A stretch of 64,000 nucleotides of DNA, taken from contig CAVUPH010000014.1 of assembly GCA_963743305.1 (NCBI GenBank), positions 384,001 through 448,000 on the forward strand, written 5' to 3'. Origin of the DNA: an uncultured delta proteobacterium (GTDB lineage Bacteria > Desulfobacterota > RBG-13-43-22). Positions 59,741 to 63,448 of this stretch are shown here, piece after piece; within the stretch, counting starts at the first letter, position 1; each line of letters starts with the position of its first letter. A program made the translations under genes and the position numbers. A model generated the notes under the pieces. The model worked only from the letters and a program-made list of their open reading frames with translations. It was not told the DNA's origin and searched no databases.

Positions 59741-59962
59741 CAATCGACTTTTATTAGACAAGAAAGAATGGAAACGATATCGATGGTTAATAATTATTAT
59801 TATTTGAAATAAATTAATACATTTGCCAGTGGGCGCAAGTAAGGCCGGAAAATTTTTTTTATTATCCTAATTTTTTTCTTGATTTCTCTTGAAATAAACA
59901 TATAAATGATTATTTATATACTTGTTGCTTCAATGGCTGATTTCAAGAATCAGGAATTTATA

Positions 59963-60343
59963 ATGATCAAAAAGAGCAGAAACAAGATGAAGGGAATAGC
60001 GTCTGAGGCTTTTCCGGAGGAGATGGGAAACCAGACGGAATGGGAACAGTCCCTATCCACGGTGGCTTTCTTAGCCAAAAGTTTGTCGGATGAAAACCGT
60101 TTGCGGGTGCTCATCAGTCTTCGCGAGGGCCGGCTTTCGGTATCCAGCCTGGTAGAGGCTTTACAATTGTCCCAGCCGCTGATTTCCCATCATTTAAAGG
60201 AATTAAAAAGGTCGCTGTTAGTCAAGGTCGAGCGCAATGGGCCTTTTATCTATTACGAACTGGCCGACAAAAGAATCCTTCAGATCATGAAAGACCTGGA
60301 GACCGTGGCCGGGGAATTACTGGCCAACCGTCGAACTTTTTAG
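59963..60343 (+). CDS. ArsR/SmtB-family regulator with no Cys (start uncertain)
   Basis: KSLSDENRLRVL, LSQPLISHHLKEL, R.GPFIYY. Confidence 0.88.
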   Translation: MIKKSRNKMKGIASEAFPEEMGNQTEWEQSLSTVAFLAKSLSDENRLRVLISLREGRLSVSSLVEALQLSQPLISHHLKELKRSLLVKVERNGPFIYYELADKRILQIMKDLETVAGELLANRRTF

Positions 60344-60358
60344 TCAGGAGAACACCCG

Positions 60359-60814
60359 ATGCCTGGAAAAACGATACTGGAATTTATCGAGAAACTCGAG
60401 CCGGAAAAAGCCTTAAAAGAAATTTCTCTGGCGGTCAAAACCCTTTTCCCCATGCTGGACCAGGAATCCCGTCTGAATTTTGTGGTCAGCCTGATCGGGG
60501 ATGCCGGGGCGGACAAGGTGGCCAGCCTGGTGAACCTCTGACTGGCGGAATGCATGGACGAAGGTGTCGATCCAACCAAGATGTGCCAGAGTTTAGTGGA
60601 TAAGGTCTTTCAATCCAAACAGTTAAGAACCGTGGCCGAACCGGATATTTTAGCGCTTTTTGAAGACTGGCTGGAGGAATTGGAAGAGGAAATCATAAAT
60701 ATGGTAAAAAAGACCGGTTCCGATGATCTGGGGAAGTTGGCCCGAGGATTGGGGTTGTCCCGGGCCGGCGTAAATTTCCTGATCACCAAATTAAAGAGGG
60801 AAGAAAGGATTTAA
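60359..60814 (+). CDS. tsoA: Predicted selenoprotein with LULAEC motif and C-terminal HTH-like segment (TsoA-like)
   Basis: In-frame TGA at 60539-60541 joins ORFs 60359..60541 and 60554..60814 (VNL-U-LAECMDEG); hairpin at 60555-60574. Family name recalled, not searched. Confidence 0.8.
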
Positions 60815-60848: not shown

Positions 60849-62583
60849 ATGAAGTAGAAAACCATTTTATTGCCGCATTCTCGGTGGCTCTGGTAATCGG
60901 GGCTCTCTGGTTTACCAACCGGGCCGTAACTCCAACGGCGGCTACCTGGGAAGATGTTCTCCAGGAAGCCCAGCGCGGCGGCTATCGGATCATCAAGACG
61001 GATGAGATCTGGGAACGGTATCAAAGAAATCCGCAGGACCTGATGCTGGTGGATACCCGTCAGGAATGGGAATATCGAACCGGACACCTCAAAGGAGCGG
61101 TTAATTTTCCCATGGAACCCACGGCCTGGTCCCGCTGGCGGAAACAGAAGGAGATGGCGACCTTTTTGGGACCCGATAAAAACCGCTTCCTCGTCTTTTA
61201 CTGAGCGGGCTTGACCTGAGTCCGCAGCGACTCCGCAGCCCGGGTGGCTGTCAAACTTGGCTACAAAAATGTATATCGCGATCCCTACGGATTTCCGGAA
61301 TGGCAGGCCAAAGGTTATCCCATCAGCAGCGCTCCGGCCGGCCTGTCCGGGGAAGCGGCCCCTCCCCAGACCCCCGGCCCCTTGTACGGCTGGGCCATGG
61401 TCTGGACCCTGCTGGGCATTTTTGCCGGAGGGATTGCCTTGAACCTGACACCATGTGTCTATCCCATGATCCCTATTACCGTTTCCTATTTTGGAGGGCG
61501 GAGCGGAGAGGGAAAGGGAAAACTATTGACCCATGGCCTGTTATACCTGGGGGGCCTATCGGCCACCAACTCCATTTTGGGGGTTGTCGCGGCCTTGACC
61601 GGTGGTCTTATGGGGGCCATGCTTCAAAACCCGATGGTCCTACTGGTCGTGGCCGCTATTCTGGTTTTTTTCGCCTCCAGCCTCTTCGGGTTTTGGGAAC
61701 TTCGTCTTCCCGGCGGCCTGACCCAGCATGGCTTCCAAATCTTATGCCGGATATTTCGGTTCCCTGTTTATGGGCTTGACGCTGGGCGTGGTGGCCGCAC
61801 CCTGCATCGGTCCTTTCGTTCTCGGACTCTTAACCTGGGTGGCCAGTATGGGGTCCCCATGGCTGGGGTTTATTGTCTTTTTTACCTTGAGCCTGGGCCT
61901 GGGGCTGCCTTTATTTTTTCTGGCCATGTTTTCCGGCAAGATCGAAAAACTACCCCGATCCGGAGAGTGGATGATCTGGGTTCGAAAACTGATGGGCTGG
62001 ATCCTGGTGGGCATGGCAGCCTATTTCATTCGGCCCCTCCTACCTGAAACCGTAGCGGTATTCCTTTTCGTTCTGGTAGCCTTGGGCGCCGGACTGCACC
62101 TCGGCTGGCTGGACAAGTCCCAGGCCGGCTTTCGGGCCTTCGCCTGGATGAAGGGTGGGGCCGGGATCGCCGGTCTGGTGATAGCCACTTTTATCCTGGG
62201 TTCCTGGATGATCCGCGGGCCGGGGGTGGCCTGGAATGCTTATTCGGACAAGCTTCTGGCGGAAGCGGCCCAAAACCGGAAACCGGTCATCATCGATTTC
62301 TATGCCACTTGGTGTACCCCCTGCCGGGAACTGGAGGAAATCACCTTTCACCAGCCTGAGGTGGTCACAAAGGGGAACCGGGATTATATTATGATAAAAG
62401 TGGACGTGACCCAAGCCGGGAACCCACTGAATGAACGGCTTCTCAGTCAGTATGGAATTAAAGGGGTCCCGACTGTGGTTTTTATAGATTCGAGCGGGAA
62501 AGAGCATCTGGAACTTAAGGCTGGTCGATTATCTTCCGCCGGACCAGTTCCTGAAGAAAATGGAAACAATAAATCAAAAATAA
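60849..62583 (+). CDS. tsoB: Predicted double-Sec rhodanese / DsbD-TM / thioredoxin fusion (TsoB-like); apparent indels at ~60853, ~61722, ~62518
   Basis: VDTR..WEY..GHLKGAVNFP; FY-U-AGLT-U-VRS (TGA 61202 and 61217, in frame with 61244); LTPCVYP, APCIGP; DFYATWCTPC, GVPT. Confidence 0.8.
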
Positions 62584-62596
62584 GAACACGGGAGGT

Positions 62597-63109
62597 TTGA
62601 TGGCGTATATAGAAAAATTTTTGGGAAGACGGGTCGAGGTCCCGGAGGATCGACGTTATGTCGTCAAACCGGGACTTTGGGCCAAGGCCGAAGGGGCGGA
62701 GGTGCGATTTGGGTTAACCGAACCGGAGTTGGTATTAGCCGGCGGTGTCAATGACCTGGAATGGCTGGTCTGGGATGGAGAAGAGGTGGAACAGGGACAA
62801 TCCATTGCCATCGCCATCACCGGAAAAATTAAATATATTGACGCTCCCGTAGCCGGGGTCCTGCGGCTGAATCCCGGGATAAAGGAAGCCACGGCCCTCA
62901 TTGCCCGGGACTCCTATGGAGAGGGATGGTTGTTTCAAATCAAAACCAGGTCCGAAGCGAATTTCGCCCTGGAGGAACTGTCTTCGGCTGAAGCCTATGT
63001 AGAGAGCCTCCAAAATTCAGAAGGATGCAAGAATCCGGAAGGACTAAAGGGCGGGGTTTCCGGGATCTGCAAGGCGGTTTATACCGGGATCAAAGAACAA
63101 AAATTTTAG
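62597..63109 (+). CDS. GcvH-like (lipoyl-carrier fold) protein with Cys-containing C-terminal extension
   Basis: RRY...LW, VRFGLT, APVAG...NP, DSYGEGWLF; canonical ESxK replaced by AITGK. Confidence 0.75.
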   Translation: MMAYIEKFLGRRVEVPEDRRYVVKPGLWAKAEGAEVRFGLTEPELVLAGGVNDLEWLVWDGEEVEQGQSIAIAITGKIKYIDAPVAGVLRLNPGIKEATALIARDSYGEGWLFQIKTRSEANFALEELSSAEAYVESLQNSEGCKNPEGLKGGVSGICKAVYTGIKEQKF

Positions 63110-63130: not shown

Positions 63131-63448
63131 ATGGTCAAAGTTCGCTGTTTTTATAATGAACCCAATGGAAAGCCTTGAAAGCATTTTCAGGAAATGATGC
63201 CCAGGTTGGGCCAAAAGTACGAAATTGAGGTTGAAATACTATCCAAACCTATAGCTGAATACAATACGGATGAATATTTTGAGTTGGAATTGCCGGTGGC
63301 TCCAGCCATCATGGTGGATGACCAGATCCTGGTGGAAGGCTCCGATGTTTCTGAAGAAAAATTGGAGAACGCCATCCGCGCCAAACTGGGCCTGGAGGCT
63401 ATAGTGATAGAAAAAAAAGGGGTTCTGGGGCGGCTTTTCGGTCGGTAA
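63131..63448 (+). CDS. tsoC: Predicted thioredoxin-fold selenoprotein with NEPNGKPU motif (TsoC-like)
   Basis: RBS AAGGAG, ATG 63131, MVKVRCFYNEPNGKP-U(63176)-KHFQEMMPR in frame with ORF 63194; APAIMVD; hairpin at 63199-63211. Confidence 0.82.

Follow-up and report, generated by a model that had tools for sequence, protein, structure and literature searches.

A tsoB locus with a predicted double-selenocysteine rhodanese site and a conserved two-hairpin RNA element in an uncultured member of the Desulfobacterota

Selenoproteins built on the rhodanese fold have been described in several forms, and in forms 1–4 (UxxS, UxxG, CxU) and the UxU form selenocysteine (Sec) lies in or beside the active-site loop (PMC1976440, PMC13188914). 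The UxU form, noted in 2007, indicates that a second Sec has evolved before in this fold (PMC1976440), and a review table lists TsoB as 'rhodanese-like form 5, UxxxxU, 2 Sec', credited to Haft & Tolstoy 2025 (PMC13188914). Two Sec residues in place of a redox Cys pair are also described for predicted bacterial UxxU selenoproteins, a Prx-like thiol:disulfide oxidoreductase and a putative mercuric reductase (PMC9312934). The locus considered here lies in a 64,000-nucleotide (nt) stretch of contig CAVUPH010000014.1 (positions 384,001 to 448,000; assembly GCA_963743305.1) from an uncultured delta proteobacterium, hereafter the window, and consists of a disrupted copy of tsoB (60849..62583, from ATG 60849 to the ancestral stop TAA 62581–62583), a gene for a rhodanese/DsbD-membrane/thioredoxin fusion selenoprotein; all features are on the forward strand. 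As in the other rhodanese forms, the predicted Sec residues fall in the active-site loop, but here they are spaced as U-x4-U in a loop that exceeds the canonical one by two residues, and the domain is joined to a DsbD core. In the UxxU proteins the motif is of the thioredoxin-fold or metal-site kind with a 9-nt spacing, whereas TsoB places the pair in a rhodanese loop with a 15-nt spacing.

The gene is read, with a probability of roughly 0.85, as tsoB, the middle selenoprotein gene of the 'three selenoprotein operon', with a U-x4-U double-Sec site, a two-hairpin RNA element and a DsbD-like mechanism. The original prediction, made from the letters of the window, implied a novelty that is not borne out: TsoB and its UxxxxU motif are already catalogued (NF045694, and the table of PMC13188914), and the double-Sec finding is a rediscovery. 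What is added here is that the decoding element is narrowed to 61218–61251, that an 8-bp stem starting directly after the first UGA is not part of it, and that the window copy is disrupted.

The locus shares with the catalogued TsoB family (NF045694) its domain order, the U-x4-U motif and an operon with tsoA, a GcvH-related gene and tsoC (gene order tsoA-tsoB-gcvH-like-tsoC). A full-length match to the family model 'seleno_TsoB' was found in a same-genus orthologue (1024.6 bits, profile 2–571 of 572, cut-off 805) that is 92% identical to the window's rhodanese domain. The window copy differs in having a TAG as its third codon together with three single-nucleotide indels and matches the model as two pieces, 477.9 bits (profile 4–291) and 486.4 bits (profile 278–554), each of which remains under the cut-off because of the frameshift at 61722. 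Correspondingly, Pfam places the Rhodanese domain and the first half of DsbD_TM in one open reading frame (ORF) and the second half of DsbD_TM with Thioredoxin in the next ORF, in another frame; orthologues have one continuous frame of 577 to 633 codons, which the indels break in the window.

The active-site loop is encoded at 61196–61228 (TTT TAC TGA GCG GGC TTG ACC TGA GTC CGC AGC). The first TGA (UGA1, 61202..61204) stands where a canonical rhodanese has its catalytic Cys, and the second (UGA2, 61217..61219) lies five codons past it, and both are read here as Sec codons. The two share a frame with ORF 60884..61204 and ORF 61244..62047, so that sequence and frame agree with the originally predicted pair of in-frame UGAs in a U-x4-U arrangement. 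With TGA translated as U, the frame gives ...LGPDKNRFLVFYUAGLTUVRSDSAARVAVKLGYKNVYRDPYGFPEWQAKGYP..., and the Pfam rhodanese match (read-through residues 48–151, 54.2 bits) spans both TGAs and continues unbroken across GTG 61244. UGA1 aligns with the catalytic Cys of the FYC motif in the solved rhodanese 6mxv; in the same comparison the loop is two residues longer than that of a canonical rhodanese, and the second predicted Sec sits in this longer loop. Two paralogues in the same genome carry related loops: one (C14:114736-115128) has Cys at both positions (IYCGFTKCTRS) and the other (C16:98046-98348) has the Cys/Sec combination (FYCQGST-TGA-ALS, or C-x4-U). The latter has a single hairpin of the Sec insertion sequence (SECIS) type (CCGCCC-GGA-GGGCGG) starting 16 nt past its UGA, and one TGA is also present in its homologues in several relatives.

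Both TGAs are conserved across the orthologues examined. A rhodanese-domain search of 61 genomes, the window's own and 60 relatives, returned 12 best matches in 12 genomes (68–98% identity), all of which have exactly two TGAs (12/12), while the matches at 45% identity or less were paralogues with one TGA or none. The family model, searched against 401 genomes of the phylum at the 805-bit cut-off, gave 29 matches in 25 genomes, each with exactly two TGAs (29/29). The window's genome (G000) and one other (G017) fell under the cut-off only because frameshifts split their copies, and TGA-free matches covered the DsbD part alone (profile about 166–571). The TGA/TGA pair was likewise present in 80/80 loci of a third set, the best 80 of 236 relative-encoding stretches in a species-representative collection (63–99% identity), with carriers that include Syntrophobacteraceae, Desulfobulbaceae, Desulfobacterales, the cultured Desulfoprunum benzoelyticum DSM 28570 and Desulforhopalus sp. 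IMCC35007, and in 27/27 complete orthologues of a codon alignment. None of the 61-genome, 401-genome and 80-locus sets contained a full-length TsoB with Cys in place of either predicted Sec. The survey of C/C, U/C and U/U variants that had been proposed as a check returned TGA/TGA for the TsoB orthologues examined and Cys/Cys or Cys/Sec for the two paralogues of the window's genome.

The Cys/Cys paralogue, the alignment with 6mxv and the TGA/TGA conservation together bear out the placement of both UGAs on the Cys positions of a C-x4-C rhodanese loop. Because the rhodanese match extends across both TGAs, a Cys/Cys paralogue exists and the TGAs are kept in every orthologue examined, the arrangement goes beyond chance. 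Given that the UGAs occupy both Cys positions and that TGA/TGA is retained, a double-Sec site is by far the best reading, and both UGAs are almost certainly Sec codons. Additional tsoB copies were observed in a few genomes: two full-length copies above the cut-off in each of G070, G138 and G164, and in G003 (C27:1522-3154) a second tsoB-like copy with extra stops (one TGA and one TAA in one piece, four TGAs in the other).

Downstream of the second UGA, hairpin C (61235..61251, GCAGCC-CGGGU-GGCUGU) pairs 61235–61240 with 61246–61251 in a 6-bp stem closed by a 5-nt loop and has the form of a canonical bacterial SECIS. It starts 15 nt past UGA2 and 30 nt past UGA1, its loop begins 21 and 36 nt past the same codons, and it folds at -8.0 kcal/mol in the window (9 of 200 shuffles are as good). 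In a gap-free alignment of 30 distinct orthologue stretches (A1, beginning 15 nt ahead of UGA1 and extending 90 nt past it), the stem is 100% paired with compensatory changes at 61237/61249 (GC in 18, AU in 10, CG in 2) and 61240/61246 (CG in 29, UA in 1), and its covariation score was reached by 0 of 500 shuffles and collapsed in every slid control. Pairing holds in 78 to 80 of the 80 loci at each position, with the loops CGUGU (39), CGGGU (35) and AGGGU (6), and 94 of 100 orthologues fold at -7.5 kcal/mol or below. The bSECISearch model, as given in the legend to Fig. 2 of PMC13188914, has a 3–9 nt loop, a stem of 4–16 bp, G within the first two positions of the loop, a UGA-to-loop distance of 16–37 nt and a minimum free energy (MFE) of -7.5 kcal/mol or less. 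Hairpin C agrees with it in loop and stem size, G[G|U] loop, spacing and energy, and is thus alike to the bacterial SECIS of the E. coli fdhF type in all four constraints stated there. The SECIS hairpins of tsoA (conserved, starting 13 nt past the UGA, with the loop AGGUG 20 nt from it), of tsoC (conserved, with the loop GGU 25 nt from the UGA) and of the single-Sec paralogues also have GG-containing loops at similar spacing. Folding and covariation therefore support the second hairpin of the original prediction as a real, covarying SECIS, and hairpin C is very probably the SelB-binding element for UGA2. The arrangement departs from the fdhF type in that two UGAs 15 nt apart precede the SECIS and in that UGA1 and the SECIS are separated by a conserved mini-hairpin that includes part of UGA2.

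This mini-hairpin, hairpin B (61218..61233, GAGUC-CGCAGC-GACUC), pairs 61218–61222 with 61229–61233 in a 5-bp stem with a 6-nt loop. It is 16 nt long, begins with the GA of UGA2 and starts 13 nt past UGA1, the same spacing as in the tsoA SECIS. RNAalifold recovers hairpin B (GAGUC-CGNAGY-GACUC) with hairpin C directly after it. In alignment A1, 98.7% of cells in hairpin B are paired, and the pairs are invariant, so there is no covariation; across the 80 loci each pair holds in 77 to 80, with 10 wobble-preserving changes and 7 breaks. A hairpin of this kind was found in 0/7 sequences of the C-x4-U single-Sec paralogue, all seven of which have one GG-loop hairpin about 14–17 nt past the UGA, at a place homologous to hairpin C, and hairpin B is therefore specific to the form with an extra upstream UGA. 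The seven were taken from ten pattern hits, the other three being spurious.

Codon usage points to the same stretch. In an alignment of 27 complete orthologues, which leaves out the frameshifted G000 and G017, the partial G007 and duplicates, codon entropy is zero in only 3 of 229 conserved-residue columns, two of which (GTC at codon +6 and GAC at codon +9) lie in the stem of hairpin B. Among 8-column windows across the gene, entropy is lowest over codons +6 to +15 after the first predicted Sec (mean 0.29, against 0.71 for the gene), whereas the scorable codons between the UGAs (+1 to +3) have entropies of 0.54 to 0.82, equivalent to free synonymous variation. Hairpins B and C are the most codon-constrained stretch of the gene, the conserved RNA element consists of two adjacent small hairpins (61218–61251, 34 nt) that overlap and follow UGA2, and no RNA-level conservation is seen in the stretch from one UGA to the other.

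The original prediction had placed an 8-bp stem at 61205..61225 (61205–61212 paired with 61218–61225). The stem is present in the window and folds there at -11.1 kcal/mol, with 1 of 200 shuffles as good, but it is not conserved: in A1 it is 82.9% paired without compensatory change, four of its pairs being broken in 7, 10, 9 and 15 of the 30 sequences, one pair is kept in only 26 of the 80 loci, and only 29 of 100 orthologues reach -7.5 kcal/mol, which rules it out as a SECIS. The accompanying proposal of a SECIS that contains the next UGA survives in part, as a conserved hairpin does include part of UGA2, though this is hairpin B and not the 8-bp stem. A 4-bp closing helix around both hairpins (61206–61209/61256–61259), suggested by RNAalifold, was also rejected; its sole informative pair stands at 73% against 64% in shuffles, 15 of 2000 shuffles scored as high, and the signal is too weak because the sequences are so closely related. 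When the 61-nt stretch was folded by MFE for 100 orthologues, the structures were inconsistent and were set aside.

Contigs from four environmental runs, at least 85% alike and derived from relatives, also cover this region. Their summed depth peaks sharply at 61166–61287 in all four runs, and in the two DNA runs it reaches 200–370 there against 3–130 elsewhere. A depth peak at the U-x4-U site and its hairpins fits with this stretch having the highest nucleotide conservation in the gene across relatives.

Bacterial SelB/SECIS systems normally use one hairpin per UGA at a fixed spacing, and two UGAs five codons apart offer a clean natural test case for this machinery. In the scheme proposed here, hairpin C would decode UGA2, while decoding of UGA1 would depend on hairpin B, which would serve as an additional SelB site or else as a folded spacer. 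That hairpin B is a second, weak SECIS, such that B and C form a tandem, has a little under an even chance. The other version, in which hairpin B is a folded 16-nt spacer that would equalize the effective distances of UGA1 and UGA2 to hairpin C once the ribosome melts it, is possible but on balance doubtful. Taken together, it is suggested only tentatively that a compact, conserved two-hairpin module at 61218–61251 decodes UGAs 15 nt apart, with hairpin B acting as a non-canonical SelB site or a collapsible spacer. If true, the module would represent a SECIS architecture outside the current bacterial model of one UGA and one hairpin. The comparative data point to specific synonymous mutations within the 34-nt element.

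The best-surviving alternative is that a single SECIS serves both codons, with hairpin C alone binding SelB for UGA1 and UGA2 and hairpin B a passive structure or collapsible spacer. Only hairpin C combines a canonical loop (CG[G/U]GU) with covariation and adequate stability, its loop lies 36 nt from UGA1, within the 16–37 nt range of the bSECISearch legend, and the 16-nt length of hairpin B approximates the 15 nt between the UGAs. However, a review passage places the E. coli SECIS minihelix 11 nt from the UGA, the SECIS hairpins of this operon start 13 to 20 nt past their UGAs while hairpin C starts 30 nt past UGA1, and one site would need reloading with SelB and Sec-tRNA within five codons. 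On this evidence a lone SECIS is a serious contender that would still be expected to fail more often than it succeeds.

The genome encodes much of the machinery that Sec insertion would call on, including a full-length SelB that contains the winged-helix domains of SelB (363.5 bits), a tRNA-Sec bearing the anticodon UCA (75.1 bits) and selD, which itself carries one TGA (G000:C26:75850-76774). TGA terminates 887 of 2439 long open frames and is therefore an ordinary stop elsewhere, which rules out a genome-wide reassignment. A SelB-like ORF was also observed on the window's own contig, C14, but outside the window (G000:C14:98758-100799; TIGR00475, 261.7 bits, profile 1–342), 58 nt from a 92-nt tRNA that scores 50.8 bits as Rfam tRNA-Sec and is called tRNA-Cys with anticodon GCA by ARAGORN; the two presumably resemble the reported SelB*/Sec-like tRNA-Cys pairs.

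SelB*/Sec-like tRNA-Cys pairs have been reported to insert Cys at UGA, and this SelB-like paralogue beside a tRNA of Sec-like shape raises the possibility that the tsoB UGAs are read as Cys through such a non-canonical recoding system. This is very unlikely, as the GCA anticodon of the 92-nt tRNA decodes UGY rather than UGA, the genome has a canonical tRNA-Sec (UCA) alongside a full-length SelB, and TGY codons would suffice for Cys, as they do in the C-x4-C paralogue.

Several observations weigh against the reading of the gene as a double-Sec tsoB with a two-hairpin element and a DsbD-like mechanism. All of the evidence for selenium at both positions is comparative, and the DsbD-like electron path and the diselenide are drawn from domain order only. 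Hairpin B lacks covarying pairs, such that its conservation could partly reflect other constraints; it folds at -4.8 kcal/mol, with 0 of 100 sequences at -7.5 kcal/mol or below, and its loop has no GG/GU motif and a freely variable third base in the 80 loci. In terms of the bSECISearch model, its loop (6 nt, CG...), 5-bp stem and 18-nt spacing from UGA1 fit, and its energy does not. The window's own tsoB carries three frameshifts and the TAG at codon 3. No match to selA was found with TIGR00474 or PF03841 in the 90.12%-complete genome, and the selD coding sequence breaks into two overlapping frames around GGHSIDD. With respect to these two genes, selA is present in 5/5 relatives, and in two same-genus sister assemblies it is in two pieces (G001:C29:10438-11614 and G003:C2:156266-157625), which indicates that sporadic frameshifts occur in such assemblies. 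The split selD and the selA that was not found may reflect either assembly noise or an early decay of the Sec trait.

The weakest alternative, that the TGAs are genuine stops in a dead gene, or that they separate a short rhodanese fragment from a DsbD-like gene restarting at GTG 61244, could draw on the disabling lesions elsewhere in the window copy and on the selA that was not found and the split selD, but it is barely credible and already contradicted for the TsoB family by TGA at exactly both codons in all 29 above-cut-off matches and all 80 loci, by frames of about 580 to 630 codons that stay uninterrupted even where identity falls to 63%, by a ratio of nonsynonymous to synonymous substitution rates (dN/dS) of 0.11 to 0.16 and by the covarying SECIS downstream. 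An independent restart at GTG 61244, which the original prediction had named as an outcome that would overturn it, is rejected as well, as this codon is GTA in 5/80 loci and the rhodanese match is continuous across it.

The lesions in the window copy were located by alignment with three same-genus orthologues. Codon 3 of the ancestral frame is TAG in this copy (60855..60857), followed by a T4 run one base short (frameshift 1, 60864..60867), a CCC run with an extra C that splits DsbD_TM (frameshift 2, 61720..61722; Pfam split at profile 109/122) and an extra A near the C-terminus of the thioredoxin domain (frameshift 3, 62512..62512). As assembled, this copy cannot make the protein. Where the environmental contigs of relatives span the two sites with extra bases, they omit one letter at 61722 or 61726 and another at 62516–62518; contigs from RNA libraries cover 61167–61286, which does not demonstrate transcription. 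Over 22 kb of synteny only tsoB, among real genes, changes frame in the window, rpoB, rpoC and dnaE (about 11 kb) each remain in a single frame, and the dN/dS of the window copy (0.107–0.122) is no higher than that between intact copies (0.128–0.163). The split selD in the genome and the split selA in two sister assemblies point toward assembly noise. Based on these four lines, the lesions either arose very recently or are errors of the local assembly. In a search for the source reads, no indexed public run contained more than 0.16 of the words.

Intact orthologues have an N-terminal hydrophobic anchor, the rhodanese domain and then about eight membrane helices in a hydropathy scan, and end in a thioredoxin domain with a WCTPC (CxxC) motif. 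Their active-site loop reads U-A-G-L-T/A-U-V-R-S, and 27/27 sequences keep the Cys of LTPCVYP, the Cys of AAPCIGP and the WCTPC motif. The rhodanese domain is predicted to be extracytoplasmic. The DsbD model NF001419 scores 238.4 bits over residues 184–574, under its cut-off of 330, and the N-terminal domain is a rhodanese, which places the protein outside that family. TsoB shares with E. coli-type DsbD (NF001419) a two-Cys membrane domain followed by a C-terminal CxxC thioredoxin, and an extracytoplasmic N-terminal domain ahead of about eight helices, but this N-terminal domain is a two-Sec rhodanese rather than the DsbD N-terminal domain.

By analogy with DsbD, electrons from the cytoplasm would pass to the membrane Cys pair and on to the thioredoxin domain, which in turn would pass them to the U-x4-U site and reduce it, the rhodanese domain being placed where DsbD has its N-terminal domain. 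The site may cycle between diselenol and diselenide or may hold an Se, S or metalloid adduct; a diselenide is plausible. In TsoB the two predicted Sec residues occur where DsbD-like proteins pass electrons to extracytoplasmic partners. Their position at this hand-over point makes TsoB a natural candidate for an extracytoplasmic diselenide redox centre in the sulfate- and sulfur-cycling Thermodesulfobacteriota.

In annotation, automated gene calling will break tsoB up or cut it short, and the window copy should be flagged as disrupted. The neighbouring genes follow the operon order. Upstream of tsoA lies an ArsR-family regulator (59906..60343; Pfam HTH_5). The tsoA gene (60359..60814), a LULAxC-motif selenoprotein gene, matches NF045695 on both halves and encodes LULAEC with its UGA at 60539–60541. 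Downstream of tsoB are the GcvH-related protein of the operon (62597..63109; NF045810, 252.4 bits, cut-off 150) and tsoC (63131..63448; NF045708, 101 bits), a NEPxGxxU-motif selenoprotein gene with the sequence NEPNGKPU and a UGA at 63176–63178. Both tsoA and tsoC are intact single-Sec genes that gene callers would also split or truncate.

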